Notes: generated by a model from the letters alone, not told the origin. 32,000 bases of DNA from Nitrosococcus oceani ATCC 19707 (GCF_000012805.1 NC_007484.1:690001-722000); one strand, 5' to 3'. Shown: positions 4,887 to 30,060, counted from the first letter of the stretch. Numbers and translations are program-made.

Positions 4887-4893
4887 GACACTC

Positions 4894-8591: not shown

Positions 8592-9029
8592 GTGAATGTC
8601 GCAAAGGCCTATTTCATTATCTTGATGGTTCTAACGAGCACGCTAAGTGCTCCGGCCATAGCCGGCGAGGCAGCACCTGCGATTGAGGTATTTACCGATT
8701 CGACGTTCCAGGTTGTCAGTGCTTCCGACAATACAACCGTCTATGTGATGGACCGCATTAACCAGCTGCTGCAAGTTCTCTCCGAGGACTTGCCCAGTGA
8801 CCCGGAAAATGCCAAACAGTTGGTCCTGGCGCGATTTCAACGAATGGATGCTCAGCTCAGCAGTGAACTCGAGAACGCTGCCAAGGGACTGGTGCAGGCG
8901 ATGCAGTACGGCATCAATCGATACCCGGCCATTGTGATCAATGGAAACGCGGTGGTTTATGGCGTGACCGATGTCAGTGCCGCAACCCAGCTCTATCAGC
9001 GATGGCAGACAAGGGGGGCGCGGCAGTGA
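8592..9029 (+). CDS. periplasmic ICE protein, TIGR03757-like (PFL_4709 family)
   Basis: 145 aa with a GTG start and a signal peptide (LTSTLSAPAIA/GEA). The C-terminal 'YGINRYPAIVINGNAVVYGVTDV' matches the conserved block I recall for this family. Start codon uncertain. Confidence 0.65.
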   Translation: MNVAKAYFIILMVLTSTLSAPAIAGEAAPAIEVFTDSTFQVVSASDNTTVYVMDRINQLLQVLSEDLPSDPENAKQLVLARFQRMDAQLSSELENAAKGLVQAMQYGINRYPAIVINGNAVVYGVTDVSAATQLYQRWQTRGARQ

Positions 9030-10048
9030 AAAAATGTTTGCGTTACGGTGCATTGATCCTGCTGCTGTGGATGCCGCTGATTGGCAACACGGGCACAATC
9101 ACCACGCCACAAGTCATCGCACAAACGACGAGCGCGGCACTGAGCTGTATGCGCTGGATGCCGGTAGGTATCTGCTTCTGGCTGCGTTGCTCTTTGTTCG
9201 GCTGCAGCGTCGAAACCTCTCTCAAAGTTGGCCACTATCAGCCGGACGCTGTGGTAAGCAGCTATAACGAACTCGGTGGTAATCCCTGGGTCGAGATTCG
9301 CAGTACTCTGGGTGTGGCGCAACAATCAGCGGCTAACGGGCTGTTGGGAAGCTTGTTACCCGTACCCATTGACAGTGCCGGCAACAGAACGGAAGGCGGG
9401 CAGGGTAACAAGGATCACCGCAATCTGGTTTTCCGGGAAACGGATGTGATCGGCCACCCGGTCAGCTCCCTGTCGAACATCGTTGCCAGTACGGGTTATC
9501 TTTGCAATTCACAAACCACGTCATTCTTCCCGTATTTTCTCTCTGGCCTGGATGCGCTCTCCTGGCGGATGGAAATCCCGGAGATGTTCTATCCCGCCAG
9601 CCTGATACCCGGCCTGCGGGAAATCGGCACCTGGCCACTGCAGACCTGGGGTGGCGTCTATCCCCGCACCGGCTGGACTACCCAGTCCGAAGAGCCGAAG
9701 GCGGCGGCCATCAATGCGCAACGGGCGGGCGACATCGCGACCCGCACCGGCCAACCCCATATCTACGTGCCGATAACCGGTGGCTCCAGTTCCGGCCAAC
9801 GAGTCTGGCCGCCAGGCCCGCTGGTCGAAGACGATCCCGCTACCGGTGAGTGGCAGATGTTGCTGCCCAAGTCGGAAGCTACCTGCAAGGTGTTCGGTAC
9901 CAACGATCTGGCCAGTCTCAGTGGCTGGGGTAGTGGTCGTGTCGATGCCCAAGGCGATTACGTCTGGAACCTGTGGCGCCCCTATAGCTGCTGCCAGGAT
10001 CGCGGCATCTTTCTGTTCAACGTCGACTGGATCAATTACCCACCATGA
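9026..10048 (+). CDS. TraU-like ICE protein, TIGR03756-like (PFL_4710 family)
   Basis: Cys-rich TraU-type block CMRWMPVGICFWLRCSLFGCSVETSLKVGHYQPDAVVSSY. I prefer GTG 9026 as the start: it forms a GTGA overlap with the upstream stop and has a GGGGGG RBS at 9013-9018. The ORF-track ATG at 9002 is the alternative. Confidence 0.75.
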   Translation: MKKCLRYGALILLLWMPLIGNTGTITTPQVIAQTTSAALSCMRWMPVGICFWLRCSLFGCSVETSLKVGHYQPDAVVSSYNELGGNPWVEIRSTLGVAQQSAANGLLGSLLPVPIDSAGNRTEGGQGNKDHRNLVFRETDVIGHPVSSLSNIVASTGYLCNSQTTSFFPYFLSGLDALSWRMEIPEMFYPASLIPGLREIGTWPLQTWGGVYPRTGWTTQSEEPKAAAINAQRAGDIATRTGQPHIYVPITGGSSSGQRVWPPGPLVEDDPATGEWQMLLPKSEATCKVFGTNDLASLSGWGSGRVDAQGDYVWNLWRPYSCCQDRGIFLFNVDWINYPP

Positions 10049-11385: not shown

Positions 11386-11749
11386 CCTCCGGGCTAAGCG
11401 AAAAGGCTTTCTGTTGTTGACTACCTTGGCCGCCCTGTTGACAGGGCTGGTCGGTTTTCTACTCATGCACCGGCTGCAGACTGAATCCGTGCAATCCGTC
11501 CGGCACAGTCTCGATGTCTGGCGGATGACTTTGATGTGTATTCGCTGGACATCGATCACCCTTGTCGCACTCAGCTGGAAATACTTGATCGCCCGGTTGG
11601 TGAGTATAGGCGTGATCAGCCACGACAAAGTTGCATCACTAACAGAGATGCGTTGGCGCGCTGTCACCTGGCTGGTGTTATTGGAACTGGTGTTAGGGCA
11701 GGGGGTGCTGGTTAAGACAGTGAGCCTGGCAGTTGGAGCCGTGCCATGA
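11375..11749 (+). CDS. small ICE membrane protein (unassigned family)
   Basis: This frame is open from 11120, but it overlaps the upstream gene until 11385. Hydrophobic helices (FLLLTTLAALLTGLVGFLL; VTWLVLLELVLGQGVLV) lie downstream of 11385. The stop overlaps the traG ATG (ATGA at 11746-11749). The start is not resolved: GTG 11369/11375 or a later ATG. Confidence 0.45.
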   Translation: MFNNLRAKRKGFLLLTTLAALLTGLVGFLLMHRLQTESVQSVRHSLDVWRMTLMCIRWTSITLVALSWKYLIARLVSIGVISHDKVASLTEMRWRAVTWLVLLELVLGQGVLVKTVSLAVGAVP

Positions 11750-13311
11750 GCGTCGACAGCTATCTGGAACTCTTTACTTCCCTTTTCGGCTGGACCTTCT
11801 ACGGCATTCTCTGGGATGTGTTGGTCAGTACCGGCATCGTCTATTTGCCGTTCCTGGGGATTCTGATCGATAACTGGCGCGAACCAGCGCAGGGCGGTGA
11901 GGTCGGTCATGCCAGCGGCCTCTCGCTGCGGCGCATGGAGATCGAACTGTTTATCGCGTTACTGGTGGTGGTCCTGGCCGGGCAACCCGCTGCCCTCACG
12001 CCACTCAATGCCGGTACCTTGTCCTATTCCCCGCCACCAACGCTATTGGATCCAACGCCGGCTGCAGCGACGGTGGCTGCGCCCCAGAGTACCTATGGCA
12101 CAACGGGCTTCACCGGTACCGCCGCAACCGTCAATGTTCCCGTCTGGTGGTACGGTGTCATCGCACTGAGTTCGGGTTTGAACCACGCTATCGTCGAAGG
12201 CCTGCCGACCGTGGCGGATATGCGGACGTTCGAGCAGCAGGCGCATTTAGCCACCATTGCTGATCCACGCCTCAGGCAGGAAGTGAGCGAGTTCTTCAGC
12301 CAGTGCTACATTCCGGCGCGTTCCAAATACCAGGCTGAACGACCAAACATAGCGGCCATCAACGGCATTCTCGCCACGTACGGTGTCGATGACCCGGATT
12401 GGATGGGGTCCCACGTCTATCGGGACACCTCGGGCTATTACGACACCCTGCGCCCTGCCAGCCCAATCACTGGCTGGGCATACATTGCGGCCAGAGATAC
12501 CGAGTATGACGCCACATCACCACCGGCCTGGGGAAAACCCTACTGCAAACAGTGGTGGGAAGATGGGGCAATCGGCTTGCGTGAGAAGCTGATCAATGAG
12601 GCAGATGCCACCTCTGCCGGCTTCTCCGGACTGGTAGTCGCCATCGCGCCCGCTCTGGCCAGCGAACAGCAAAACGACGCCGTCGCCAAAACCGTACTGA
12701 CCAACGCGCCGCCCTCCTGGTCGAACAATGAGTTAATCGCCAACAACGCATCCGGAGCAGGGTTGGTCAACACCGCCGGATCTATCATCAAAGGTGGTCT
12801 CGCCACCGGTGGTGTGATCACCGCATCAGCCCTGTTTTCCGTAACCATGACGGCCGTCTTACAATCACTGCCCATGGTGCAGGCCATTATGCTGCTGGGT
12901 ATCTATGCACTGCTCCCATTGGTGGTGGTTTTGTCCCGCTACTCCATAGCCATGATGGTAGTGGGCGGTATGGCGATTTTCACCATCAAGTTCTGGACAG
13001 TGCTCTGGTACCTGGCCATGTGGGTGGATCAGAACCTGATTCTGTCCATGTATCCCGACGTTAACGTTTTCCTGCAGATCTTCGCCAACCCTGGCGAACA
13101 CGACGCCAAGCGCATGTTGCTGAATATGATTACCACCAGCCTCTATCTGGGGCTGCCGTTGCTGTGGAGTGGGATGATGGCGTGGGCGGGGGTGAAAGTC
13201 GGTAGGTCGATTGATTCGGCAGCGAACCCGATCAAGGCGCCAGCGCAGGATGCTGGCAATCAGGGAGGAAGTATCGGCAAGATGGTGCTGACCAAAGGTA
13301 AGAAACGTTAG
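11746..13311 (+). CDS. traG: conjugal transfer protein TraG (TraG N-terminal-domain polytopic membrane protein)
   Basis: 521 aa with multiple TM helices at both ends flanking a periplasmic domain. Last gene of the MPF-G block, where TraG_N proteins sit in this ICE family. Confidence 0.75.
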   Translation: MSVDSYLELFTSLFGWTFYGILWDVLVSTGIVYLPFLGILIDNWREPAQGGEVGHASGLSLRRMEIELFIALLVVVLAGQPAALTPLNAGTLSYSPPPTLLDPTPAAATVAAPQSTYGTTGFTGTAATVNVPVWWYGVIALSSGLNHAIVEGLPTVADMRTFEQQAHLATIADPRLRQEVSEFFSQCYIPARSKYQAERPNIAAINGILATYGVDDPDWMGSHVYRDTSGYYDTLRPASPITGWAYIAARDTEYDATSPPAWGKPYCKQWWEDGAIGLREKLINEADATSAGFSGLVVAIAPALASEQQNDAVAKTVLTNAPPSWSNNELIANNASGAGLVNTAGSIIKGGLATGGVITASALFSVTMTAVLQSLPMVQAIMLLGIYALLPLVVVLSRYSIAMMVVGGMAIFTIKFWTVLWYLAMWVDQNLILSMYPDVNVFLQIFANPGEHDAKRMLLNMITTSLYLGLPLLWSGMMAWAGVKVGRSIDSAANPIKAPAQDAGNQGGSIGKMVLTKGKKR

Positions 13312-13538
13312 TCCTTTTCGTACCAGCCGGTAGCATCAGTGCCGTCGTCGAGTTTCCCTGTTTTGTAATTCAGGGCTCCGCCTCGAACAGCACTTGAGAC
13401 TGCATCATCAGACTTGGTCTCAGCGCTTTCAGCCAGCATACCAAGCATACTGCGCAATAAGTGGCCGGCCGCTGCAAAAATAGCGAAGACGGCTAGGAAT
13501 ATCTTTTGCAAACGAGGCCTTTCTTTTACGGTTTTCAC
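13308..13538 (-). CDS. hypothetical 76-aa single-pass membrane protein, possible fifth gene of the helicase-methylase-ATPase operon
   Basis: The GTG start overlaps the DUF499 stop (GTGA, 13535-13538). GAGGAAG RBS a few nt upstream. TM helix [16 protein letters not shown]. No terminator-like hairpin in this 230-bp stretch. Its stop overlaps the convergent traG stop. Confidence 0.4.
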
Positions 13539-16384
13539 GACTCTTCCTCAAATTCTGCTGAGCTAAATTTCAAGACATTACAATTCTCTTTGACTGTTCG
13601 CTGCATGGACTCATTGAATCCATCCTGGCTATTGGCCTCAATCTCCACGGATATCCTGACATTCACGCCGAGCTTGGCAGTGAACTGCTGTACGACTTCA
13701 TCCATTATGGTGGCAAAGTCCATTTTGGCTTTGACCGGGTCGAGTGAAATAGTGCCGTAGAACTGCTTCTTGGTTGCTGCTGGTGTTGTTGTGGCAGCGC
13801 CTCCTAACCCGCCGGATGTTGGGGTTGGTGTCCCCGTGCCGCTCGCGCCACCAACCGGTATTGTAGTGCCTCCAGGTTCGCCGCCTGCAGTCCCGGGCTC
13901 CGCCGTTGGTGGAGTGGGCTGCTGTGTATTTTCGCGGTAAGCAACTGCTGCCTCGCGATCTATCAGGAGAGAGGATTCATCCACCGTGGCAATAGAATTA
14001 CGCCCGAATGTGAAGCCGAGATAACGGTCGCCTTCCTTGCCAGAGGCGAAGGCGAAGTAATCTTCAACCTCGATCCCCTGGGTGATGGCATTGCGGAAAA
14101 CACTGTCGTTAACAAGCCGAGGCAGGTACAGGTAGTGACAGCAGTCCTGCCAGACCTTCAACGCACTGACGTCGTTTACGCCTTCTTTCAGGTACCACTG
14201 TTTAAGTACATTGCGAAGATGAATAGGAGACCACTCGTAAATCATCCACTCCTCTTCGCGCAATTTATCCTCGATCGCCTGAATCAAGTTGGGCGCTGCG
14301 GGTGAGACGGGAACCACCTCCCAATTGAGAGTTGGCTTACCCTTTACGAATTCTTCAACTGGGGCGATTAACCATTTGTAAGTTTCGCGCACCAGTTGGG
14401 CAAGCGACTGATCTGCGCCATCACGATTACGCTTGGCCTGGTTCAAATGAGACAAATCCTGATTCAAGTGGCCATTTTCGATATCTGTGGCAATGGATTG
14501 CCACGCCAGGAAAATGCGGGCCTGCTCTTTGAGTCGGCCAACCACATCGTAGTCGGGAGCCAGGAAGATCAGGCGATTTTGTTTTTGCCGTGGTTGGTCG
14601 CCGCGGTTGCGCAAAATCTCTTCTGCGGCAGAAAATGCCTGGTTGGTCTCACTGCGACTGTAGGCTGTGTTTGTCGGCAACACGACCAGTCGAGGGCCCG
14701 TACCATAGTCGTCCGGGACATCGACGGAAGGTGTAAAGACGTGCACGCCACCAAACTGGTGATTTCTGCCGAATACCTGGGTTACTCGGGTTTTTAACAA
14801 TGGCAGGAGTTCATCTCGTTCGTTGATGTTCTGCTTGCGGCTCTCCATTTCTCGGCGCAGGTTGGGTTTGGTATCTAACCAGAATCGGTCTTTGTCGGAA
14901 TAGAGATAATGCAGTCGATCACGTAAGCGCTTGAGCACGTCTTCAAATACACCGAGCGTTTGACCGGGTTGTGCCGCGCCCAGCAGGATGCGTTCGACCT
15001 GAACACCGCGAATCATCTGCTCAGTGGTTGATGGTGCGCTGCCGAGAAAAATGGTCCGGGCGGTGCGGCGCGCGGCTTGCACGCTGCCGAACAGGGTGTG
15101 GTGGCCATCGATGTCATAGGGGGCCGAGCGGGTACCGTCCACTTCTCGTTCAATCACGGGTTCCCACCCCTGAGGCAGGTAGTGAATGCTCTTGTTGCGC
15201 ACGTTACCATCTTCTAACGGTAATGAACCCGGCATGATCAGCGCATCTTTGTTATCCGAGTTCCACAGGCGGTGGATAACAATGGCCATATATTGAAGAA
15301 CGCCACGGGTGCGCTGAAATTTTTCAAGCGTGGACCAGTCCTCGTACAAGCGGTCGAAAATTTCCGGGTGGATCGGGTAAGACCGGCAAAGACGCTCGAA
15401 ATATTCGTTGGATTGGGTTTCGACCGGAAACTTTTCGGCGTTCTGACGATAAAAGTCAGAGAACTGACGGCTGATACCCTCCACCTCGGCGCGTTCACCC
15501 GGGTTCTCAAATAATCTGCGACGCACAATCTCGAACGCTTCCTCGGTGCCTACCGGCTTCCAGACGGACTCAACTCGTGCGAAGTACTTCTCCAGCGAGT
15601 TAAGGGCGCGCTGCCCTTGCGTGCCTCCAACTTCCAGTTCTGATTCGGGCAGCGATGCCAATAGAATGGCATTGGGTACTGCCTTCAGCGCTTCGGTGAG
15701 CGCCTGAATAAAACTGACATTGCTATCGAATGTGCCAGCCTTATATTGCTTGCCAAGCTCCAGTTGTCGAATAAACGCCACCAGCTCATCCACCAGAATC
15801 ACACAAGGGGCTGCCTTGCTGATCAGTTCAGTGAGAACCTCTTTTCCGGGAGAGGTGCCGTCAGCGTCGCTGTCGGCGACCATCTGATAACCCTCATCCC
15901 CCAGAAGTTGCCAGGCCAGCTCGCCCCACAACGTGTTGGCAGTTATGCTCCCGTACTTCCTGGGCTGGCTAGGCGACAATTTGATGCCGTCAATCACCGC
16001 CACTCTGGCCGAGGGAAGGCTCTGAATCCCTGCCTCATCTAATACCGGAGGAATACCCGTGAGTTTGTCGGTGCCCACCTTGCGCGAAGCCAGGTGAAAC
16101 ACGGCCAACAGCGTGTGGGTCTTGCCGCCACCGAAAGCGGTCTGCAATTGAATGACCGGGTCGCCACCGAGCCCAGCCAACCGTTGCGCGACAGAGATGA
16201 GTAAGAGGCGCATGCCCTCGGTGATATAAGTGCGGGAGAAGAACATCTCCGCATCCTGATACTCTGCAGTGGCTGTGCCATTGGCTACCTGGGTGATGTC
16301 AGCCGCAAACTCGGACTGTTTGAAGGTGCCTTCCAGAACATCCTTGTGCGGAGTGGCAATTTCTCGCCAGGGTTTCAAACTCAT
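13535..16384 (-). CDS. DUF499-family P-loop ATPase (COG1483-like) of a helicase-methylase-ATPase defence system
   Basis: ORF 13535..16465 trimmed to ATG 16384, which has a GAGGA RBS and lies 10 nt after the MTase stop. The N-terminus [16 protein letters not shown]...EFAADI is the typical DUF499 start. Walker [11 protein letters not shown], Walker [11 protein letters not shown] Gly/Pro/Thr-rich linker precedes a small C-terminal domain. Confidence 0.85.
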
Positions 16385-16394
16385 GGTGTAGTCC

Positions 16395-19304
16395 TCAAAA
16401 ATCCAGTCCGAGTTCGGCTTGCGAGCCACTGTGGCCAACCTCGTGGGAGGCGGTGACAATGGCATGCCAGGAACCGATCAATTCGTTGTAGGCGCGGGCA
16501 TCTTCGGCCCACTTCTTGCGTTCGCACAGGGTGTACAGGTGATAGGCGAGCTGACGAATGGGTTCTCCTTTCTCCGGCATCTTGGCCAGTAGTTCGCCAG
16601 CGGCCGATTCACCCTGGTTGTTGAGACTGCGAATCATTTGGTGGCAGGCTTCCCAGATAGGTGTGCGGTTGTCTTTAATGGGATCCCAATCGGCTTCGTA
16701 CTCCGCCCATTTCAATAGGCGAACCTTGCCGCCGCCGGATTCGACGACCCCGGCTGTATTTACGCCATCTACCGTCGTGCCCTTTGCTTGCGCTAGCACG
16801 TTCGCTTCACCAAAGGGACCAGTACTCCATCCGTACTGATCAAACCAACTGGAGCAGAACTGGGTGTCGGCATCGAAACTGCCGGATTCCGGGCTGAGGT
16901 ATTCCGTGATGGCGCGGTTGATCAGGATTAGCGCATCATGCACGCTCATACGTGAACCATCCTGATTCAGTACGGCCTCGTACTTGGAGAAGATGGCCAT
17001 CCCCGGGCCAATCGCGGCCTGGGCTAAATCCACGGGAGCGATGGGTGTAGTGCCCGTTTCTCCGCCGATCATGGCTTCTAGTGCGTCGGGCATCTGTTCA
17101 CGCAGTTCACGTTGGAAGTCGCGTCGTGAAATAGATTCGGCTTCGATTTCACGTTTTTTGCATACCAGAACAACAGAGGAAGCCAAAGCATTAGTACCAG
17201 AGCCAATCATACGATTGGACATTTCAGTTCTCATTGGCCAAGTACCATCGATAGAAAAGCCTGCTCTAATCACAGCCTCTAAAAATGTTTCCCAGCCTGT
17301 ATTAGATGTGGCCCCTTCTTTGGTTTCTGATTGTTTGAACGCGTAGTAAATAGATACAGGGAAAGCAGGATGCCCTTTGTCAGCCATATTATGAATGGCT
17401 TGTGTCATACCATCTAGAAAGAAGGTCTCTGCTTTTTCTTTTGTGCCATGACGATAAGGTATAGCGACCAATTCCTCAGCCTTTGGAACCGCCATAGTAG
17501 CGAACAAACTTGGATAGAATGATTTTAATGAGCGCCTCATCCATACGTAAAAAAAATCAGACAGGTCGGCATAACCAATATTGTCATAGTAAGGCGGGTC
17601 AGTTGAAATGACCTTTTCAGCACTAATGTTTTGGGTTGCTGCGTCTTGTTGAACTGCTATTCCACCACTAGATGGAATCATTCGGCTAAGCACGTCATTT
17701 GCCCATCCAATTCCTCCCATAAAGTTTCCAGTGGAGTCTGAGAGTGGATTTGGTTCTGCAAAATCCCATGTCATTGGTATAGCTTGGCGGCCAAATGTGT
17801 TTCGAGTGCTACTTCTCGATGAATCCCATGTGCAAATGGTTGAGCCTCTGTCTGCCAATTTATTTATCGCGAAGGTCAAATAAACCGCCAAAGCATCGCC
17901 ATAAGCAGTCGCACCTCTGCCTCCATCATCAATACCGATTCCATCGTCGGTCATTCCCGCTGCTTTGGCATCAGCGATGGCTTTGTAGCAGGCTTCCTGA
18001 ACTAGATCAGAGAATGTATTTAGAGCGACAAGTTGGCGGGGAGTGAAAAGATCGCCATAGGATTTCATACCGTACATCGGTGGTGAAAACCAACGAGGGT
18101 TTTCTGGCATTAATGCATCTGGCTTCCAGTCCGGTGATGCAGCACTTGCGGCCTGCTCCATTTCTGCGGTGGGCGTAAGATAGATACGCCCACTTTTCCC
18201 CTCAGCTACAACCGCCATTAGTCGCTGACCCAGATTTCCGGATTGTGCCTGTGCATAAATGTATTTCGGGTCAATAGGTGTATCTGATAGTAGGCAGGTA
18301 AAGTTGGCCCCACGACCCAGTTTAGTTCCGTTCCTTGCTTCTGCTGGCGGAACTCCCATACACACTTCGAATTGATAGTTATGTCCTTCGACTAACGGAT
18401 TAACATAAGACTCTTTTCCCTTCTTGGTGGAAAGTAGAAAGCTAGACGCTAGCGGGATATCGGCATGGCTGAAAGCCGGATTGGGGCTTTTCACGGTTCT
18501 GGCCCAGAGCCAGGCGATAACAGTCAGTTCCTGTCCCTGGTATGGTTTCAGGTCGGGTCGTTCTGCGACCATCTCCTGCGTGATCTTGATCCTAGGGTAG
18601 AGATTACCGATACGCTCGAATGCTTCCTCCCGCATCCAGTGGCCGTAACGACGCACATCCTCGGCCAGGCCTCTTGCGCCAGACCAGTCATCCATCAACT
18701 TGCCTTGCTTCTCGCCTTGGGGCAGAGGACCTACTGGTCGTTGCCCGGCAAACTTCGGAGGGATCTCGATCATGGCTTTGTTGATCATCACCGCCACTGG
18801 ATTCAAGTCACTGGCATAACTTTCTAATCCCAGTCGCTGCGCCTCCAGTGGGATCGCCCCTCCGCCCGCAAATGGATCATGAAAGGCCGGGAGTTTATCC
18901 GGATTGAAAAGTTCTGCTGCTTGGGGATGATTGCGGTTTAGATGACAAGTTTCGCGCCAGCTTTCCCAGATCGCTTCACGTGCGCGATTCAGCACCTCCT
19001 CATTATTGGTGTTTTCCCACTTCACCAAATCACGGATTATCTGAAAGAGTTTCTCGCGTTTGATCTCGGCCTCTTTCTTGTTAACCCCATACTTGAATCC
19101 TTCTCCTTGCTGGTATCCGGGATCGTTGACCATTTGCGCAAACAACACGGCCCTTGCTGCTGCCAAAGGTCGGCGCGCCCACCACAGATGTAAGGTTGAG
19201 GGATGACCATGCCGAATTGACTTTTCTCGCGCTGCCGCTGTGTTGATGTCATCCAGCGGTAGCGCGACTTCAATCAGTTTTTTGGGTGTTTTTATTTCGG
19301 CCAT
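16395..19304 (-). CDS. DUF1156-domain N6-adenine DNA methyltransferase (COG1743-like)
   Basis: 969 aa. The N-terminus ([37 protein letters not shown]) is the DUF1156 signature. SAM motif I is [19 protein letters not shown]. Catalytic motif IV is D-P-P-Y at 17589-17600 ([11 protein letters not shown]). About 400 aa separate motifs I and IV. Confidence 0.9.
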
Positions 19305-19313
19305 TGATAAACC

Positions 19314-21550
<2,237 letters not shown>

Positions 21551-21575
21551 TATCTAAATTTATAAATATTGAGAC
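21551..21575. repeat. IS630-family left terminal inverted repeat
   Basis: See the mobile element entry; aligned by hand to the reverse complement of 22428-22452. Confidence 0.7.
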
Positions 21576-21602
21576 ATTTGTGTTATATTCATTCATACTG
21601 TT

Positions 21603-21938
21603 GTGATGAGATGTTCAATTGATTTGCGCAAACGAGTAATCGATTTTGTAAGGGGCGGTGGAAGCAAGGCGGAAGCGGCCCGGAGATTTCAGGTAGGCCG
21701 CGCGAGCATTTATCGCTGGTTGTCGCAGGATGATGCGCTGTGTTACGAGCGTCCCGGCCCTCGCCGTTCACACAAGCTGGACTGGGAGGCTTTACGGGTC
21801 CATGTGGAAGACAAGGCTGCTCTCACCTATAAAGAACGCGCCCGGCATTTTGGCGTTTCGTATTACTGTATTTGGCATGCGATGCACAAAATGGGGTTAA
21901 CCCGTAAAAAAAATGACGGGGTACACGCAGCGCTGTAA
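21603..21938 (+). CDS. IS630-family transposase, N-terminal HTH part (orfA)
   Basis: HTH-like segments ([20 protein letters not shown]; [25 protein letters not shown]). The ORF track starts at GTG 21603; ATG 21606 is more likely. The frame ends shortly after an A8 run at 21906-21913. Confidence 0.75.
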
Positions 21939-22437
21939 TATGAAAAGAAAGAGCTTTCTTCGCCTTCGTGAACGCTATCGCCGCCGCGGCAAAAGATTTG
22001 TCTATCTTGATGAAAGCGGTTTTGAGCCGGAGGTTTCCCGTCGTTACGCTTACGCTCCAAAGGGGCGGCGTGTTTATGGTCTGATCTCCGGTCATCGCAG
22101 ACCGCGAACCTCTTTATTGGCCGCCCGTATGGATGAAGGCTTTGAAGCGCCGTTTCTATTTGAGGGAACCTGTAACACGGCTGTGTTCAATGCATGGCTG
22201 GAAAAAGAGCTTTGCCCCTTGCTCAACAGCAACCACATTGTCATCATGGATAATGCTCCGTTCCACAAAGCCGTTTCTTCACGTGAAATCATCAAAAAAA
22301 CAGGGGCGGGAATTTTATTCCTCCCCCCTTATTCCCCTGACTTTAACCCCATAGAAAAAGACTTCGGAAATATCAAAAAAATCAGAGAATACAACGAACA
22401 TGAAACCCTTGAGAATATCGTTGCAGCGTATCAGTAA
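21913..22437 (+). CDS. IS630-family transposase, DDE catalytic part (orfB, +1 frame relative to orfA)
   Basis: DD(35)E-type triad context: VYLDESGF, IVIMDNAPFHK, LPPYSPDFNPIEKDFGNIK. The frame opens inside the A8 run. A full-length protein requires a one-nt shift there. Confidence 0.8.
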   Translation: MTGYTQRCNMKRKSFLRLRERYRRRGKRFVYLDESGFEPEVSRRYAYAPKGRRVYGLISGHRRPRTSLLAARMDEGFEAPFLFEGTCNTAVFNAWLEKELCPLLNSNHIVIMDNAPFHKAVSSREIIKKTGAGILFLPPYSPDFNPIEKDFGNIKKIREYNEHETLENIVAAYQ

Positions 22438-22452
22438 TTATAGATTTAGCTA
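22428..22452. repeat. IS630-family right terminal inverted repeat
   Basis: The reverse complement matches 21551-21575 at 19/25 positions. It overlaps the transposase stop codon. Confidence 0.7.
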
Positions 22453-23772
22453 TAACTCATCGAAATTGTCCGGCAGGTCGATCTGCCTTTTTACTGTGTA
22501 TTCGCCAAGGGTTTCTGCGACACCTTTCTGAACACTGTGGCCACGAGCGACCAGCTTCATCTCATCCAAGCGAGATTCAAGACGTTTGCGCCGGCGCTTC
22601 AGCGATTGGTATATCGCTTCTGGACTTGAGGCTAGGCGACGCTGCAGTTGTGTGAGTGCAAAGCCAACTGTGCCCCGGCGTTTACCATCCAGATTGTCGG
22701 CGCGGTTCATCTCATTGCGGACGTAGTCGGTCACTTGCGCGTAAAGCGCTGCTTCTGCATCGGAGAGGTCATAGTTCGCGCTGTATGCGCGGCGCTCGGG
22801 GAAGAGTGGCGTGCCATCAAACTTGAGTAGTTCCTCTTTCACTATGCGGCGCATCATGTCTGAGACATCTACCTTGTGGGCGCCTTCGCGAAACTTGCCG
22901 TAGAAGCGATCGCCATCCAGCAGTGAAAGCCAAATCTGGAAGTCTTCTTCCTTGCCGTTGTGCGGCGTGGCTGTCATTAATAGAAAGTGACGGGTGATAG
23001 AGCCGAGCAACTCACCCAGTAAAAAGCGCTTGGTCTTGTTGACCTTGTTGCCGAAGTAATTGGCGGAGAGTTTGTGAGCCTCGTCAACGATGATGAGATC
23101 CCACTCAGTGTTTTTCAGTTTTTCCTGGTACTCCTCATTACGCGATAACTGATCCAGGCGGCAGAGAAGTTGATTCTGTTCGTCGAAGTAGTTGCCGGAT
23201 GCACACTGCTCCTGCTTCTCACGGCTGAAGATCTCGAACTGAACACCGAATTTCTCCAGCAGTTCGTCCTGCCACTGCTCGGTGAGGCCGCCGGGAGAGA
23301 CGATCAGGATGCGTTTGGCATCGGCCCGCATCAACAGTTCGCGAATGAGCAATCCAGCCATAATGGTCTTGCCGGCGCCAGGATCGTCGGCCAGCACAAA
23401 TCGTAGCGGCTGCCTGGGTAGCATGGCCTCGTACACAGCAGAAATCTGGTGGGGCAGCGGCTCTACGTTAGAGGTGTGTACCGCCATCATGGGATCAAAC
23501 AGGGCGGCCTGTGAGATACGGTAAGCCTCAAGCCCGAGTTTGAAATCTTCACCTGGCGCATCGAATGCCCAGGGTCGACCTGCCTGAGCCAGCTCAAGCC
23601 GTGCTTCGTCCGAGCGAAATAGCATTTGTTCGCCCAGACGGCCCTGGTTGTCTTTGTAGTAGACAGTGATCGCACTATCGCCGACCGGCTCGACCTGGAC
23701 GATGCGTACGATCTCATTGCCCTGTATGCCTAAAACTTGCGCGTCTTTTTTGATGTCTTCGAGTTTGATCAT
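22453..23772 (-). pseudogene. N-terminal fragment of the SNF2-family helicase (RecA1 lobe), truncated by IS630 insertion
   Basis: 440 codons. Motif [15 protein letters not shown], motif [14 protein letters not shown] (DEAH at about 23071-23094), motif [13 protein letters not shown]. The stop codon TAG (22450-22452) is supplied by the IS end. The ATG overlaps the regulator stop (ATGA, 23769-23772). Confidence 0.85.
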
Positions 23773-24674
23773 GAGCCCTCCCTGGCGACGCGGTTGTCCT
23801 GGTTGTAGCCGGGAGCGATGACCAGGTTCTCAACGCCATACAGAGCTTGCCTGTTCTTCAGCCAGAGGTGGTATTCCGGGCCTTCCAGGCTATGCTCTTC
23901 TGAGCAGTCGACATTCCAGCGCCGGAGGACGTAACCAGCGACGGCAGCACGAACATTGACCTTCAGTACGCCGTTTTCCATGGCGTAATCTGTTTCGATG
24001 GTCTTCGGGTGTTTCAGGCTGGGATGGGGGACGATTTCCAGCTCGACGACGCGATTCCATTGGATGTCCGATTCACGGCCTTCATTCTCTTTAACAGGCC
24101 CGTCTAGAATTTCTGGATCTGAGATGCGGGTGACAACAAAATCCGCGAATCTTGACTGCTTCCTGTCATAGCCACGGACATGCCAACGCAAACCATTGTC
24201 AACCAACACGAAGGGTACGATCTCGCGCGTGCTGCGTCCGCTGCTTAGGGAGCGATACACAATTTTGCTCGCCTTATGCTGATGAATGGCGCGGGTCAGT
24301 GCTGACAAGGTCTCTAAGTCAGGGTGGTTGAGTTGCGCCGGGGCCTCGCATGCGATCAACGCCTTATGCGTCCCCACGAAATCGTCACCAAATCCATGAG
24401 CGAGAGCTGCCATGGCCTGGCTGGGCGAGTAATCGAACAACGGTTCAAAGGATGTGCCCCGTATATAGACTTTGGCCTTGGTGTCATATTCCAGATTTTC
24501 TGGGGCAAGATCCTTATACAAAGTGATGTCTCTGGTTGCCGCAGCCTCCTTGATGCCGAAGCGGCTTACGAGGTCATTTCGGCCAATAGTCCCCAAAAAA
24601 TGCGCTTTGAAATCAATGTGCGATAGCCGCTCTTTTTGCGTTTGGTTGATATCCATTGGGATGGCGTTGGGCAT
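23769..24674 (-). CDS. WYL-domain transcriptional regulator, BrxR/CapW-like (wHTH-WYL-WCX architecture)
   Basis: 301 aa. N-terminal wHTH-like segment ([41 protein letters not shown]). Central WYL-type block ([35 protein letters not shown]). First gene of the defence operon and translationally coupled to the helicase. Confidence 0.8.
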
Positions 24675-24720
24675 GCTTTTGTCCGGTGTGGCTCGATTCG
24701 GATGCAGACTGACGCCTATG

Positions 24721-24776
24721 ATATTAAAGATATAAGATTCATGTCAATATGATTTGTTGACATCATCAATATGATT
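24721..24776 (-). promoter_or_regulatory. candidate promoter/operator of the WYL-regulator operon: 2 x 11-bp direct repeat plus -35/-10-like hexamers
   Basis: TCAATATGATT occurs at 24744-24754 and again at 24766-24776, 22 bp start to start. On the minus strand, TTGACA (24747-24742) overlaps the proximal repeat and is followed by TAATAT (24726-24721). The spacer is about 15 nt by my count, which is suboptimal. The site lies about 50-100 bp upstream of ATG 24674. Confidence 0.45.
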
Positions 24777-25033: not shown

Positions 25034-26881
25034 ATGTGGCCAGATAACGAAACAGAACGTGATTACCTGAATTTCGGTGGGGTGGCCGAGACTGTTGCTG
25101 AAATCACCGTGCAGGCCCAAGGCAGGCCGATTTCTATTGGAGTATCTGGCGCTTGGGGCGTTGGCAAATCATCAATGATAAAGCTGATTCGCACTGCCCT
25201 TACCGAAAAGGACAAAAGTGAGCCAGCCCGATTTATCTATGTGGAGTTCAATGCGTGGCTTTATCAAGGCTACGACGATGCCCGAGCAGCGCTACTTGAA
25301 GTTATTGCAACTAAATTAAATGAAGAAGCTGAAAAGCGAAAAAGCGGTGTCGACAAGGCGAAAGAGCTTTTGCATCGCGTCAACTGGCTGCGCGCAGCCA
25401 AACTGGGCGCTGGTTCAGCGCTCGCACTCGCGCTGGGGCTCCCACCAACAGGCTTGATCGGTGACGTAGTTAGAGTTGGCCGGAAGGTGATTGGAGAAGG
25501 GGCCGGTGCAGAAGAAGCACAGGAAGCGGCCGACGCAGTATCAGAAGTAATTACGACTACAGAAGGCCTAATCAAGGCGAAGCCAGAACTGTCTCCGCCG
25601 CGCGAGATCCATGCTATTCGTGAATGCTTTGAGCAGACGTTAGCCGAGATGGGGGTAACGCTCGTTGTGCTCATCGACGACCTGGATCGCTGTCTTCCAC
25701 CTACCACGATCTCCACGCTCGAAGCTATTCGGCTGTTTCTCTTCCTGGACAACACGGCATTTGTAATCGCAGCCGACGATGCAATGATTAAACATGCGGT
25801 CCGACAGCATTTTGGGGAAGTTGATGACGACTTGGTTATTAACTATTTCGACAAGCTTATCCAGATCCCCATCCGTGTTCCTCCTCTTGGTACGCAGGAA
25901 GTTCGAGCCTATATGATGCTTCTGTTTATCGAGACTACCGATATAGACGATACCCTCAAGGAAGGAATCCGTGAGGCGGTTTGTTCCCAACTTGCCAAAA
26001 GTTGGCGTGGCGAGCGTGTAGACCGGGCATTCATTCAGTCAGTTTATAAAGAAGCGCCGCCGGAGCTGGTGGCGCGTTTTGACACTGCCGATCGCCTCGC
26101 TCCCATCATGGTTAGCGCCAGTCAAATCTCTGGAAACCCACGATTGGTCAAGCGTTTTCTAAACGCGCTCTCAATCAGAATGGCAATCTCGCGTGCTCAT
26201 GACGTAGGCGTTGATGAAGCGGTATTGGCGAAGATGTTGCTGTTCGAGCGCTGCGGTAATCCCAAGGCTTACGATGCTTTGATCGCAGCTGTGAACAATG
26301 ATCCCGAAGGCAAGCCGGTCTTCCTGGCTGAATGGGAGCAGAAAGCTACTTCTGGCGCAGAGGTTGAGCTGGAGCCGCTTTGGGACGATCGCTTTATTAG
26401 AGAATGGCTCACGATCACACCACCGCTCGCTGACACAGATCTGCGAGGAGTGCTTTATGTCAGCAGAGAGCATGCACCACTGATTACACCGGAAGACCGG
26501 TTGTCATCAGAAGGAGCAGAACTACTAACGGCTATCCTCACAAGTCCTGATATGGCGGCGAGTCTGCATGATCGTCTTGCGGTGCTGGCACGTCCAGAGA
26601 CCACCGTAATTATGGACCGCATACTCGAACAGGCGCGGCGCGAGCAGGAATGGGGTACGCCCGCGATCCTGGATGCGTGTATCGCCGTTGCCAAGGCCGA
26701 TCCGTCACTTGGGACGCGCGTCGCAGGCTTCTTGAGCGAGCGACCTCTTGGCCAAATCAAGCCAGGTATCGTACCCAAAATCAGCGACCAGCAGTGGGTT
26801 GCTGAAGTGTTTGCGCGATGGAAGGACGCTGACGTGAGCGCTCCCGTTAAAAAGGCAATTGAAGCTGTGGAGAAGAGCTGA
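25034..26881 (+). CDS. qatA: QatA, KAP-family P-loop NTPase
   Basis: 615 aa. Walker A GAWGVGKS at 25148-25171. Walker B LVVLIDDLDRC. The KAP-type N-terminus (ERDYLNFGGVAETVAEI) is followed by a long helical C-terminal half. First gene of a KAP / unknown / QueC-like / TatD operon. Confidence 0.85.
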   Translation: MWPDNETERDYLNFGGVAETVAEITVQAQGRPISIGVSGAWGVGKSSMIKLIRTALTEKDKSEPARFIYVEFNAWLYQGYDDARAALLEVIATKLNEEAEKRKSGVDKAKELLHRVNWLRAAKLGAGSALALALGLPPTGLIGDVVRVGRKVIGEGAGAEEAQEAADAVSEVITTTEGLIKAKPELSPPREIHAIRECFEQTLAEMGVTLVVLIDDLDRCLPPTTISTLEAIRLFLFLDNTAFVIAADDAMIKHAVRQHFGEVDDDLVINYFDKLIQIPIRVPPLGTQEVRAYMMLLFIETTDIDDTLKEGIREAVCSQLAKSWRGERVDRAFIQSVYKEAPPELVARFDTADRLAPIMVSASQISGNPRLVKRFLNALSIRMAISRAHDVGVDEAVLAKMLLFERCGNPKAYDALIAAVNNDPEGKPVFLAEWEQKATSGAEVELEPLWDDRFIREWLTITPPLADTDLRGVLYVSREHAPLITPEDRLSSEGAELLTAILTSPDMAASLHDRLAVLARPETTVIMDRILEQARREQEWGTPAILDACIAVAKADPSLGTRVAGFLSERPLGQIKPGIVPKISDQQWVAEVFARWKDADVSAPVKKAIEAVEKS

Positions 26882-27726
26882 TGGGCACTTCGTCGTCGAG
26901 CGCCGGCTCTCCCTCTGGCACGCCTATGGTGCCGCCTTGGGTGCCAGACCCGGTGCCACCTGTCGATGGCCCCGGTGATGACGAGGGTGCGCCGCCGGAA
27001 AGCGACGCGCCAGATGAGGCAGTGCAACAGCCAGCCCAGCCTGTACCCATAGCCCCTCCTGCACGTTTTGGCGGTGCGCGCACCAGGCTCGGCCGCTTTG
27101 CTCGCACAGGCTTAGCCGACGATATGCGAAAAGGCGTAGGGCACTACGTCCACAAAGGGCTGGGTGGTAGTGGCACGGCAGTGCGCCGCCTTGGTGGTAC
27201 CGCCCGCACTGCCGGCACGCTGTTTGGTGCGTTATCAGCGGCAGCCGCAGGCCAGGCATCAGGCCCGGGAAATGAGCTGAACCCGACTGTTCTCGCTGGT
27301 CGCAGTGCTGACGAAATAATGAGCGCCGTCGTTGAGGCTGTGCGTCCCGTAGACGGCACGCAAGACGGTGAGGCCAGTCGCGCCGCTATCGGCAAAGCAC
27401 TTTCCGAGCTGCTTACACAGTTTCCGGACGCCGACCTGCTCAACCTGTCAGAGACGCAACGGGTGCTTGCAGTTGAGCGCTTTATTGCATGGGACGTGTT
27501 CAACCGATTTGAGCTTGATCTTGGCAAGACGATTCAGGAAAAAGCACCAAGTGTTGCGAGCGCTCTTTCCCGCCTTAAAGAAGTGAGGGACTTCATTACG
27601 CAAACGGTCGCAGCGAGTTTCAGAAAGCTGTCGACCGACGCAACCGCTCTTGGCAGCAACAAGGTTGCCGCAATTGTCCGAGATGCACTAGGGCTGGCAA
27701 TTGGTGTATTCGAGGGGTATCTGTAA
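26881..27726 (+). CDS. qatB: QatB (Qat-system protein of unknown fold; Pro/Asp-rich N-terminal tail)
   Basis: 281 aa. The start overlaps the qatA stop (TGATG, 26879-26883). N-terminus is MGTSSSSAGSPSGTPMVPPWVPDPVPP. Assigned by its position between the KAP NTPase and the QueC-like gene. Confidence 0.75.
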   Translation: MGTSSSSAGSPSGTPMVPPWVPDPVPPVDGPGDDEGAPPESDAPDEAVQQPAQPVPIAPPARFGGARTRLGRFARTGLADDMRKGVGHYVHKGLGGSGTAVRRLGGTARTAGTLFGALSAAAAGQASGPGNELNPTVLAGRSADEIMSAVVEAVRPVDGTQDGEASRAAIGKALSELLTQFPDADLLNLSETQRVLAVERFIAWDVFNRFELDLGKTIQEKAPSVASALSRLKEVRDFITQTVAASFRKLSTDATALGSNKVAAIVRDALGLAIGVFEGYL

Positions 27727-29004
27727 ATGAGAATTATCTGTGGTCCCTCCAACTCAAAGTTCGAGCGCCTGCGCAAAGACGACTTGCGGTGCATTCTGTA
27801 TGGTTCTGCGGAGAATTCCTATCACGGTTCGGCTGGCGGGACACTTCTCAAACACGTTCAGAGTCTTAAGTTATCCCCAGCGCCTCGCGCGTGGGATCTG
27901 CTGTCGCTCGCTCTCTCGGTCATCTGTGCGGATACAGCTGTCCGGCGCGGCGAGAGCCCGGATGGTTGGACCCGCCAGATTTCTCTTACCGTCGCGGTGA
28001 GTGATCCAGATTTCTGGACAACTCAGCGCTCGCTTATCGAAGATCAGCTTAAGTTCCTTACAACCGATTTATGGGCTCTGCAATTCGTGGGTTATGGCCT
28101 TTACCCTAAACCAAGCAAAGTTCCCAAGCTTCCGGATGGCGATTGCGTTACCTTGCTTTCGGGCGGCCTTGACAGCTTTGTCGGTGCTATCGACCTCGTC
28201 GCTGATGGTAAGGCCCCATTTGCTGTCAGTCAGGTTGCGGCAGGTGATAAGCAATCGCAAGCGGACTTTGCTGCGAAGATCGGTGGCGGACTTAATCATC
28301 TGCAACTGAATCACAACGTCAAATGTCCGGGCGAGAATGAACGTTCACAACGCGCCCGATCATTCATCTTCCTTGCCTATGGCGTTCTGGCTGCTAGTGC
28401 GCAGAAGCACTACCACGATGGTGAGCGCGTTGACCTTTATATTTGCGAAAACGGGTTGATATCGATCAATCCGCCTCTCACGCCGGCCCGGCTCGGTAGT
28501 CTTAGCACGAGGACGACCCACCCGGTTTTTCTGGGATTATTTCAGAGGCTGCTCGATGTTGCTGAACTGCGGATTGCAGTTCGCAATCCATATCAATTTA
28601 GGACGAAAGGCGAAATGCTCCTTGAATGCAAGGACCAGGCATTTCTTAGGAAGCACGCTGCAGAGACAACTAGTTGTGGACGCTATGCGCGCAATGGCTG
28701 GCAACACTGCGGGAGGTGCTTTCCGTGTCTGATCAGACGCGCTGCATTCCATGCATGGGGAAAAGACGATAGGACAAAATATGTCTATGCCGATCTGTCG
28801 AAGAATGATTCGCAGCACGCCCGATATGATGACGTACGATGCGCAGCGATGGCAGCGGCGCTTGTCGATGCAGATGGACTAGACGCGCTTGCGACTAACA
28901 ATCTCAATGCCTTAGCTATGGGCGATCTTACCCCTTATAAGGCCATACTTACTCGTGGAATAAGGGAAGTTGGTCAGTTTCTGGCAGCAGCAGGTGTTCG
29001 ATGA
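27727..29004 (+). CDS. qatC: QatC, QueC-like PP-loop ATPase
   Basis: 425 aa. PP-loop SGGLDS at 28159-28176. C-terminal Cys cluster (SCGRYARNGWQHCGRCFPCLIRRAAF) like the QueC zinc site. The ATG immediately follows the qatB TAA. Confidence 0.85.
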   Translation: MRIICGPSNSKFERLRKDDLRCILYGSAENSYHGSAGGTLLKHVQSLKLSPAPRAWDLLSLALSVICADTAVRRGESPDGWTRQISLTVAVSDPDFWTTQRSLIEDQLKFLTTDLWALQFVGYGLYPKPSKVPKLPDGDCVTLLSGGLDSFVGAIDLVADGKAPFAVSQVAAGDKQSQADFAAKIGGGLNHLQLNHNVKCPGENERSQRARSFIFLAYGVLAASAQKHYHDGERVDLYICENGLISINPPLTPARLGSLSTRTTHPVFLGLFQRLLDVAELRIAVRNPYQFRTKGEMLLECKDQAFLRKHAAETTSCGRYARNGWQHCGRCFPCLIRRAAFHAWGKDDRTKYVYADLSKNDSQHARYDDVRCAAMAAALVDADGLDALATNNLNALAMGDLTPYKAILTRGIREVGQFLAAAGVR

Positions 29005-29729
29005 TCGACTTTCACTGTCACGTCGATCTATACCCTGACCCGCATGCGATTGCCCGGGAATGTCGTGAGCGAAAGCTAAACGTGTTGTCTGTGACCACGA
29101 CACCTAGCGCGTGGGCAGGTACCTCGGCTCTAGGCGGAGGCGCAATCATAACGGCGCTTGGTCTGCACCCTCAACTCGCACATGAGAGAAAGGGTGAGTT
29201 GCCGTTGTTCGATCGCATACTGCCTGGCAGCGCTTATGTAGGCGAGGTCGGATTGGATGGCGCGTCTGAGTTCAAGACACATTGGCAAGACCAAATCGAT
29301 GTCTTTCGACACATACTTGGCGCGTGCACCGAAGCCGGTGGAAGGGTTATGTCAATTCACAGTCGGCGTGCAAGTACGCCGGTACTTGACCTGTTAGAGC
29401 TGTATCCGGAGTCGGGCACACCGATTCTTCATTGGTTCACCGGGACAGCGCGTGAGCTGGATCGGGCTATTTCTCTGGGATGTTGGTTTAGTGTTGGGCC
29501 TGCGATGCTCAGGAGCAAACGTGGAAAGGACTTAGTGATGCGCATGCCTCGAGAGCGTGTACTTACAGAGTCAGACGGACCCTTTGCACAAATAAAAGAA
29601 AGATCGATTTTCCCCTGGGAGGTAAATCTTGCGGAAGCAAAGTTAGCGGACCTCTGGGACTCCGATCCGGGGTCTACGGGGCAGTTGCTGAGTGAAAATC
29701 TGAATATTCTCTTGTCAATTGGTAGGTAA
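29001..29729 (+). CDS. qatD: QatD, TatD-family metal-dependent hydrolase/DNase
   Basis: 242 aa. N-terminal IDFHCHVD (HxH metal motif), GEVGLD, SIHSR, HWFTG and ESDGP blocks typical of TatD. ATGA overlap with qatC. Confidence 0.85.
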   Translation: MIDFHCHVDLYPDPHAIARECRERKLNVLSVTTTPSAWAGTSALGGGAIITALGLHPQLAHERKGELPLFDRILPGSAYVGEVGLDGASEFKTHWQDQIDVFRHILGACTEAGGRVMSIHSRRASTPVLDLLELYPESGTPILHWFTGTARELDRAISLGCWFSVGPAMLRSKRGKDLVMRMPRERVLTESDGPFAQIKERSIFPWEVNLAEAKLADLWDSDPGSTGQLLSENLNILLSIGR

Positions 29730-29838: not shown

Positions 29839-30060
29839 ATGCCTGACGAGTCAGTGGACGCAGAGATTCTTACGATCAAGGAGGTTGCCCTCTATCTGAA
29901 GGTCACCGAGCGGACTATCTATCGCTTGGCAGCGGACAAAAAAATCCCCGGCTTCAAGGTGGGTGGGGCTTGGCGATTTTCCAGGAAGGAAATCGATCAG
30001 TGGATTCGGCGTCAGTCTGAAGACCAGCATGGGGACGCGGGTGAGCACGATGACAAGTGA
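29839..30060 (+). CDS. excisionase/MerR-type helix-turn-helix DNA-binding protein (HTH_17-like)
   Basis: 73 aa. The sequence LTIKEVALYLKVTERTIYRLAADKKIPGFKVGGAWRFSRKEIDQWI is the classic Xis/AlpA-type HTH. Acidic C-terminal tail. The 3' end overlaps the next gene. Confidence 0.8.
   Translation: MPDESVDAEILTIKEVALYLKVTERTIYRLAADKKIPGFKVGGAWRFSRKEIDQWIRRQSEDQHGDAGEHDDK

Follow-up and report, generated by a model that had tools for sequence, protein, structure and literature searches.

The 32,000-nt window of Nitrosococcus oceani ATCC 19707 analysed here (NC_007484.1:690001-722000; all positions below are counted within it) contains an Hma defence operon, which encodes a helicase (HmaA), a DNA methyltransferase (HmaB) and an ATPase (HmaC). 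We consider it about 85% probable that this is a BrxR-headed Hma operon, carried as TraG-side hotspot cargo by an integrative and conjugative element (ICE) of the PAPI-1/ICEclc type, in which hmaA has been broken by an insertion sequence (IS), so that the effector is very probably inactive. The system has been described before under two names, Hma and the Type-1 BREX-related (Type-1 BR) system, and the copy in the window is an ordinary, probably dead, example of it. Its discovery value is accordingly small: Hma entered the catalogues in 2021, there is already some characterisation of its effector, and a 2026 paper set out how it relates to BREX.

A listing of open reading frames (ORFs) and a direct reading of the sequence place five co-directional ORFs on the minus strand at 13308-24674, the helicase being in two pieces. 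This is the arrangement described in an earlier note on this DNA, whose overlaps and gaps were also confirmed by the reading. The brxR stop and the hmaA start overlap as ATGA at 23769-72, the helicase and methyltransferase genes are joined by TAA, 9 nt and ATG, those for the methyltransferase and ATPase by TGA, 10 nt and ATG, and the hmaC stop overlaps the start of a 76-aa ORF as GTGA. The start assigned to hmaC, an ATG giving MSLKPW, is backed by homologues and by the family hidden Markov model (HMM). There are no embedded genes between the hma genes, all three of which are on one strand, and an Rfam scan of 13.0-25.2 kb returned no RNA families. The operon is made up as follows (L-numbers such as L009, used below, denote the loci of relatives):

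13535..16384, minus strand: hmaC, DUF499 AAA+ ATPase, 949 aa, intact (PADLOC HmaC, Pfam DUF499)
16395..19304, minus strand: hmaB, DUF1156 N6-adenine-type DNA methyltransferase, 969 aa, intact (PADLOC HmaB, Pfam DUF1156)
17655..18407, minus strand: hypervariable, putative target-recognition insert of HmaB, about residues 300-550, between motif I and motif IV (identity profile, GC dip)
19314..21550, minus strand: 3' part of hmaA, residues 441-1184, with the RecA2 lobe including motif VI, a middle region and the C-terminal NOV_C PD-(D/E)xK nuclease domain (PADLOC, Pfam, alignment)
21551..22452, plus strand: IS630-family insertion sequence, 902 bp (terminal repeats, TA duplication, transposase domains)
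22453..23772, minus strand: 5' part of hmaA, residues 1-440, with the N-terminal domain and the Snf2 RecA1 lobe carrying motifs I, II and III (PADLOC, motif reading)
23769..24674, minus strand: brxR, transcriptional regulator with winged helix-turn-helix (HTH), WYL and C-terminal domains, 301 aa (7QFZ match, Pfam)

The Hma proteins and related systems

The identity of the operon is carried by profile matches along the whole length of each protein. HmaA, once repaired by removal of the IS, matched its PADLOC model at 2227 bits (residues 1-1181 on model positions 1-1173 of 1176), HmaB at 1805 bits (residues 1-966) and HmaC at 1604 bits (residues 1-947); the next-best PADLOC families were DrmD (387 bits), BrxHI/BrxHII (314), DUF499 (163) and MTase_II (115). 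Pfam searches found SNF2-rel, ResIII, Helicase_C and NOV_C (6e-21; NOV_C is the former DUF3883) on the repaired helicase, DUF1156 on the methyltransferase (2e-30) and DUF499 on the ATPase (3e-30). Profile searches thus recovered all the domains that the earlier note had proposed (WYL, SNF2, NOV_C/DUF3883, DUF1156 and DUF499), and full-length matches of 1604-2227 bits bear out its statement that PADLOC names this architecture Hma. Sequence searches of the PDB with HmaB and HmaC gave no matches. Megablast of the 11.4-kb region found no close relative in an E. coli collection (only partial matches of 73-76% in 10 genomes) or in a plasmid collection (one 86-bp match).

Hma was named as a candidate system by Payne et al. 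(2021; PMC8565338), who reported 1,638 loci in 26 phyla, and 62.7% of Hma loci were later found to have embedded genes, many of them defence systems (Payne et al., 2024; 10.1101/2024.01.29.577857). The trio now also goes by the name Type-1 DUF499-centred BREX-related system; the paper that introduced this name found its members homologous to BrxC, BrxXI and BrxHII, which form the core of Type-3 BREX, and proposed a restriction-modification (R-M)-like mechanism (NAR 2026; PMC12839542). That work defines the Type-1 helicase by the order TUDOR, Snf2, inactive restriction endonuclease (REase), alpha+beta and active REase, and reports RapA as the closest solved relative of the class. In the window, HmaA aligns end to end with the family HMM and has RapA as its nearest PDB relative; a single-sequence AlphaFold model of its last 158 aa reached a predicted local distance difference test (pLDDT) score of only 41.7. 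Because the locus has no DUF3780, PglZ or HKD gene, we place it in Type-1 BR. None of the markers of Type-2 (DUF3780, N-terminal HKD) or Type-3 (PglZ, iSTAND) was found in the locus, where further genes would not fit, nor any HKD/PLD domain in the Pfam scan of HmaA. Type-1 BR is by definition a self-contained three-gene system, and the cluster is therefore not part of a classified BREX variant with essential genes elsewhere.

With Hma/Type-1 BR the operon shares the same three proteins, gene order and strand, a C-terminal PD-(D/E)xK domain on the helicase and an N-terminal DUF1156 on the methyltransferase; the ATPase lacks an N-terminal HEPN domain, as in the 'canonical' sub-variant. It differs from typical Hma loci in the IS interruption of hmaA, the lack of embedded defence genes and the BrxR at its head. 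The Halomonas meridiana HmaA, compared through its reported residues (PMC11232893), has the same Snf2 motif I (T136), motif VI and D/E/K/E spacing with an offset of one residue, although the Halomonas locus, unlike the window, has Septu between hmaA and hmaB and more genes between hmaB and hmaC.

More distant kinship is seen with the Type-3 BREX core, which has a homologous ATPase, an N6-methyltransferase with a nested target recognition domain (TRD) and C-terminal HTHs, and a RapA-like Snf2 helicase; HmaA matches the PADLOC BrxHI/BrxHII models at 293-314 bits. Unlike Type-3 BREX, however, the window has no PglZ, BrxA or BrxF, its helicase carries a predicted active nuclease, and its ATPase is DUF499/HmaC with no BrxC match. 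Type-2 BR, catalogued as 'anti-phage-associated DUF499, DUF1156' (PDLC02189-02193; NF042962/NF042963), contains distant homologues of HmaB and HmaC, with partial matches of 88-197 bits that are far under the equivalog cut-offs (1000 and 1200 bits), and its HKD/PLD-helicase and DUF3780 are absent here.

Several other systems were considered and rejected: canonical BREX (types 1-6), as there is no PglZ-sized ORF in 13.3-24.7 kb and the ATPase has no BrxC match; DISARM, as HmaA matches DrmD models over the helicase core only (387 vs 2227 bits) and there is no DUF1998 or PLD gene; and Druantia/Zorya and Dpd, as only the Snf2 core of HmaA matches their helicase models and the partner genes are absent.

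Interruption of hmaA

As it stands, hmaA is read as two pieces, 22450-23772 (440 aa) and 19314-21596 (760 aa). The stop of the 440-aa ORF lies at the IS boundary (22450-22452), and the 760-aa ORF takes its ATG (21596) and 15 codons from the end of the IS. The element is flanked by a TA target duplication at 21549-50 and 22453-54, and its terminal repeats are 15 bp long with 13/15 positions matching. On the plus strand it has two overlapping transposase frames, orfA (21603-21938, HTH_Tnp_IS630) and orfB (21913-22437, DDE_3). The two are probably read as one through a frameshift on an A8 run (about 21909-21916), whose presence at the overlap suggests programmed frameshifting. At 902 bp, it is unusually short for an IS630-family element. 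No match to it was found in the plasmid collection.

Deleting 21551-22454 in silico (the 902-bp IS plus one TA), the repair that the earlier note had proposed, yielded a single ORF of 1184 aa. When aligned with the intact homologues L009, L011 and L036, the repaired junction is identical and gap-free, as the earlier reading of an IS insertion would have it, and DNA alignments to intact homologues stop at 21548-50 and restart at 22453-56. Residue 440 is the last one before the break, and the interrupted stretch is the linker that joins the two RecA lobes. Identity to the window HmaA across 11-13 homologues is 71-98% over the whole length, and near-identical intact relatives (HmaA 97-98% identical in L009, L011 and L036) are at hand for functional work.

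All the motifs quoted earlier for the helicase, methyltransferase and ATPase are present on reading the sequence. The repaired HmaA has GAGKT at 132-136, DEAH at 230-233, TATP at 267-270, motif VI at 605-615 and E1105-V-K1107. As for the D...E-V-K nuclease motif that had been proposed, its E-V-K part stands; the D of 'PDRH' was not upheld as catalytic, this role being taken by D1085 in GWDV instead. The resulting set, D1085/E1105/K1107/E1122, has the same spacing as the residues mutated in Halomonas HmaA (D1084/E1104/K1106/E1121), and both motif VI and the D/E/K/E residues are invariant in an alignment of 11 HmaA homologues.

The insertion is not peculiar to a single assembly. The exact HmaB protein was found on nine contigs, and the eight inspected all carry the 760-aa truncated product or stop close to the IS; three of these contigs belong to the N. 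oceani AFC27, C-27 and NS58 assemblies, according to a genome announcement that gives them >99.99% average nucleotide identity (ANI) with the type strain and a genome GC of 50.3%. The insertion is thus common to those draft N. oceani assemblies. Contigs of draft N. oceani assemblies end at an IS630-family element, and because they break there the IS is taken to be multi-copy. On the AFC27 scaffold DS995301.1 (L001 6850-7750), the sequence past the IS continues into sbcD/sbcC rather than the 5' half of hmaA, brxR and qat, which is due either to a rearrangement mediated by the IS or to faulty scaffolding at a repeated IS.

Judged from its sequence, the split effector is very probably inactive, although the existence of a 760-aa C-terminal ORF with an IS-derived ATG tells against this conclusion. 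Both halves of hmaA are open, the 3' half has its in-frame ATG at 21596 in the IS end, the break lies in a linker between lobes, and nickase activity in vitro has been seen for an isolated C-terminal fragment (142 aa) of Halomonas HmaA; one could therefore imagine that the 440-aa and 760-aa products are made and reassemble, or that the C-terminal nuclease fragment acts alone. We regard such residual activity as very improbable. No Shine-Dalgarno-like sequence precedes the IS-internal ATG, the IS is antisense to hmaA and would be polar, ATP hydrolysis needs motif I in the 5' half and motif VI in the 3' half to work together (defence by Halomonas HmaA was lost with R610A alone), and the split is never present in intact HmaA homologues. 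Under the curation rule of Payne et al. (2024), by which high-quality Hma loci are free of pseudogenes, the locus fails, with hmaA split at codon 440. Because its effector gene is disrupted, there is little reason to expect activity from the operon in its present form, while brxR, hmaB and hmaC remain intact in this copy.

Sequence variation and the proposed mechanism

HmaB has the motifs FAGGG (145-149) and DPPY (569-572), and HmaC has Walker A and B motifs, FGGGKT from residue 85 and VILVDE at 195-200. Variation among homologues is concentrated in one part of each protein. Residues 300-550 of HmaB are 0.39-0.51 identical to 12 homologues as compared with 0.62-0.92 elsewhere in the protein, and the GC content dips to 0.466 at this hypervariable insert; in HmaC, identity across 11-13 homologues is 82-96% over the first ~600 residues and 51-75% after them. 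L036 illustrates this at the DNA level: most of the locus is at least 91% identical to the window, and identity drops to 69-80% only in 17142-18641 and to 77-86% at the 3' end of hmaC. A whole-gene swap of hmaB in L036 (~50% identity by tblastn) was considered and dropped, as the DNA divergence is limited to 17142-18641 and the hmaC 3' end. L036 is contig CAVONO010000020.1; it has an intact hmaA encoding a protein 98% identical to the repaired window HmaA, and its assignment to a 'Chloroflexia' bin looks doubtful, the gene set otherwise being found in marine Gammaproteobacteria.

Variation in the HmaB insert and in the C-terminal third of HmaC is the pattern expected of exchangeable specificity and sensor modules, and as such lends indirect support to, without proving, sequence-specific methylation. 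In its intact form, the system could be pictured as follows. A BrxR dimer, bound to the 11-5-11 repeat over the -35 box, would repress the operon until a signal releases it. HmaB would methylate adenines within a motif set by its hypervariable insert, as a mark of self, and HmaC, an ORC/Cdc6-like ATPase with a variable C-terminus, would serve as sensor or scaffold. HmaA would translocate on DNA and nick or cut it with its C-terminal PD-(D/E)xK domain, a need for motor and nickase having been shown in the Halomonas homologue only. Discrimination of self from non-self would, on this scheme, depend on methylation.

The view of the earlier note that the mechanism was not established, including whether DUF3883 is the nuclease, is outdated, given the nickase activity of Halomonas HmaA and the reclassification of the trio as Type-1 BREX-related. 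Liu et al. (2024; PMC11232893) reported that Halomonas HmaA alone protects E. coli from T4 and that R610A abolishes this defence; its NOV_C domain is a Mn2+-dependent PD-(D/E)xK nickase, a quadruple mutant is null, and the isolated C-terminal 142-aa fragment nicks DNA in vitro.

Some of the evidence weighs against a methylation-based scheme. HmaA is not only protective on its own but also non-toxic without HmaB, which speaks against a simple R-M logic, and in the one published test of methylation-based discrimination, phage T4 that had been grown on an HmaB host gained no protection, though T4 DNA is hypermodified (PMC11232893). HmaB is described as an m5C methylase in the text of Payne et al. 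(2021; PMC8565338), but both its DPPY motif and PADLOC-DB point to N6-adenine. Methylation by HmaB and a requirement for HmaC are, moreover, steps that we infer.

For these reasons, namely that HmaA alone is protective and non-toxic and that HmaB-passaged T4 is not protected, a serious rival at the level of the family is that Hma is not R-M-like at all, HmaA being an autonomous helicase-nickase of abortive-infection (Abi) type that is triggered by phage replication structures, with HmaB and HmaC as dispensable modulators. Between 15 and 20% of hmaA homologues lack hmaB or hmaC, and the isolated nuclease domain nicks supercoiled DNA with no evident sequence specificity. We nevertheless find this autonomous role doubtful. 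The three hma genes stay together in 47 related loci, the methyltransferase resembles typical specificity subunits in its TRD hypervariability and cassette mosaicism, and all three proteins are homologous to the BrxC/methyltransferase/BrxHII core of Type-3 BREX, a methylation-based system. The T4 test itself says little on adenine methylation, as the DNA of this phage is modified with glucosyl-hydroxymethylcytosine.

The window provides a natural knock-out of hmaA with hmaB and hmaC intact, such that an N. oceani methylome could reveal the HmaB motif without effector toxicity. A literature search for such a methylome found nothing relevant.

The BrxR regulator and its putative operator

The WYL regulator was earlier thought to be a possible undescribed accessory, a suggestion that its sequence relationships overturn. 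In a sequence search of the PDB, residues 8-292 of the 301-aa protein align to residues 9-294 of 7QFZ (3e-98), with weaker alignments to CapW and Acinetobacter BrxR, and precomputed Pfam matches comprise WHD_BrxR (PF26109), WYL (PF13280) and BrxR_CTD (PF26107). By these matches it is a canonical BrxR. The more general statement that BrxR-type WYL regulators head defence operons holds. The region upstream of brxR contains two further predicted features:

24718..24747, minus strand: sigma-70-like promoter of the brxR-hma operon, TTGACA, 18 nt, TATCAT (11/12 consensus matches; -10 kept in relatives)
24739..24765, minus strand: putative BrxR operator, imperfect 11-bp inverted repeat with 5-bp spacer (repeat search and conservation)

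The arms of the candidate operator, TGATGTCAACA-aatca-TATTGACATGA, have an 11-5-11 geometry (24739-24765), and the -35 box of the brxR-hma promoter lies inside the right arm. The repeat pattern occurs once in the window, compared with 0 occurrences expected by chance, and its core, TGATGATGTCAACA...TATTGAC, is found unchanged, amid divergent flanking DNA, at four other BrxR-Hma loci. Matching inverted-repeat geometry has been described for the BrxR boxes of pEFER (E. fergusonii) and Acinetobacter, pEFER R-BOX1 being 11-5-11 (Picton et al., 2022; PMC9122601).

The pEFER protein (7QFZ) is the closest parallel in several respects: a full-length homologue, encoded by the first gene of a defence operon, with an 11-bp imperfect repeat and 5-bp spacer near the promoter (PMC9122601). 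In contrast, the window BrxR would control Hma rather than BREX, and its operator is unrelated (TGATGTCAACA... vs GAAACCTACTG...). The pEFER R-BOX sequence is absent upstream of brxR, and only the geometry is in common. It is from this geometry and from conservation that we infer binding of BrxR to the repeat, and the difference in sequence from the pEFER box counts against it. A conserved candidate operator nonetheless gives an Hma operon a concrete regulatory site.

The association is not confined to the window. A BrxR homologue is encoded immediately upstream of hmaA in L009, L016, L028, L031, L032 and L041, which represent several genera, and a remnant is seen in L013, whereas seven other Hma loci with enough flank have no BrxR upstream of hmaA. 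From this distribution BrxR is a recurrent but optional head of Hma operons. The pairing is not mentioned in PMC8565338, 10.1101/2024.01.29.577857, PMC12839542, PMC12255303 or PMC9122601. Among the BrxR-less loci there are small HTH genes upstream of hmaA: L026 has an HTH_17-like 81-aa ORF (3290-3533) overlapping the start, other small HTH genes are found in L035, L039 and L044 (~420-720 bp upstream of hmaA), and the Legionella ORFs are 80-100 aa long. The regulatory head of Hma thus appears interchangeable.

The integrative element and its other cargo

The window belongs to an ICE of the TIGR03749-03757/TraG_N/TraC family, and the following features flank the brxR-hma genes:

11746..13311, plus strand: traG (TraG_N), ICE gene and cargo hotspot boundary (TIGR03749-03757 backbone genes and TraC upstream)
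13308..13538, minus strand: gene for a 76-aa protein with a single transmembrane segment, GTG start, convergent with traG (from its distribution, an ICE backbone gene and not an Hma component)
25034..29729, plus strand: QatABCD defence system (PADLOC QatA 498, QatB 124, QatC 344, QatD 293 bits)

The setting resembles that of GI-Hotspots 2 and 3 of PAPI-1/PAGI-5 ICEs (PMC12629846), where defence cargo lies beside traG (here Hma and Qat) and between traC and traU (here a NERD protein). It differs in that the host is Nitrosococcus, not Pseudomonas, and in that only the traG-side boundary was located here.

QatABCD is complete, comprising QatA (KAP NTPase), QatB, QatC (QueC-like) and QatD (TatD), and is divergent from brxR across 359 bp. 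The same Qat/BrxR-Hma arrangement is found in L032 (QatA 83% identical) and L016 (44%). Together with the finding that pEFER BrxR acts as a repressor at more than one of the promoters of its island (PMC9122601), this divergent, recurring arrangement raises the possibility that BrxR is an island-level regulator, controlling both the hma operon and QatABCD from the 359-bp region. The window has only one operator-like site, however, which overlaps the hma-side promoter and is ~270 bp from qatA, and four other BrxR-Hma loci have no Qat; control at the level of the island is thus possible but rather unlikely. It would be compatible with the preferred account of a BrxR-headed, IS-broken Hma operon, rather than exclusive of it. 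A broader conjecture, which we think improbable, is that one BrxR co-regulates Hma and QatABCD through the conserved operator as a portable two-system ICE-hotspot cassette, and that hmaB-hmaC, after the IS hit hmaA, live on as an orphan methylation module in N. oceani, a globally clonal species.

The 76-aa protein has one N-terminal hydrophobic helix and a conserved C-terminal motif, and had no match in Pfam, PADLOC or NCBIfam; its gene is real and conserved. The earlier note had allowed that this membrane ORF may be an Hma accessory, which would make Hma a five-gene system. A GTGA overlap couples the ORF to the hmaC stop, and L014 and L016 have it too. The distribution of its homologues says otherwise. 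In related genome loci the ORF is present only where a traG_N gene is adjacent, and in L032 it lies 5.5 kb from hmaC. A search with an alignment of the protein found 80 metagenome loci, with enough flank to look for traG in 52 and at least 3 kb of upstream sequence in 35: traG_N adjoins the ORF in 50/52, and upstream of it there is a full-length hmaC in 5/35, a C-terminal remnant of it in 6/35 and no hmaC in 24/35. The 76-aa ORF is missing from Hma loci that do not belong to this ICE family (Legionella, Grimontia, Alcanivorax, Luminiphilus and others). Because of this distribution, the gene is assigned to the ICE, as a backbone gene tied to traG, and a role as dedicated Hma accessory, which we give almost no weight, is already refuted as far as gene neighbourhoods can tell.

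In many ICE relatives (L054 10001-10464; L058, L059, L062-L066, L068, L070), only the last 30-80 codons of hmaC are left, directly upstream of the 76-aa gene. Such hmaC 3' scars suggest repeated replacement of cargo, with the 3' end of hmaC as a scar or recombination joint. Elsewhere (L078, L102, L105 and L091, L098, L107, L114, L135), BrxR homologues or other Snf2-type helicases lie by the small ORF and traG; cargo of this kind at the same ICE position is consistent with a general defence hotspot.

On the other side of traG, a gene at 7637-8440 (minus strand) encodes a NERD nuclease-related protein with a topoisomerase-type Zn ribbon. It lies between traC (4747-7620) and the TIGR03757/traU genes (8592-10048), a position equivalent to the PAPI-1 'GI-Hotspot 3', and is kept in all N. 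oceani contigs. Past Qat, at 29839-32000 (plus strand), are genes for a 73-aa HTH_17/excisionase-like protein (with a weak PADLOC mad1 match), a 124-aa ORF and an HSP70-like protein; the last runs off the window and is 830 aa long in L137. The 124-aa ORF and the HSP70-like gene had no PADLOC match, and the three genes may be further hotspot cargo.

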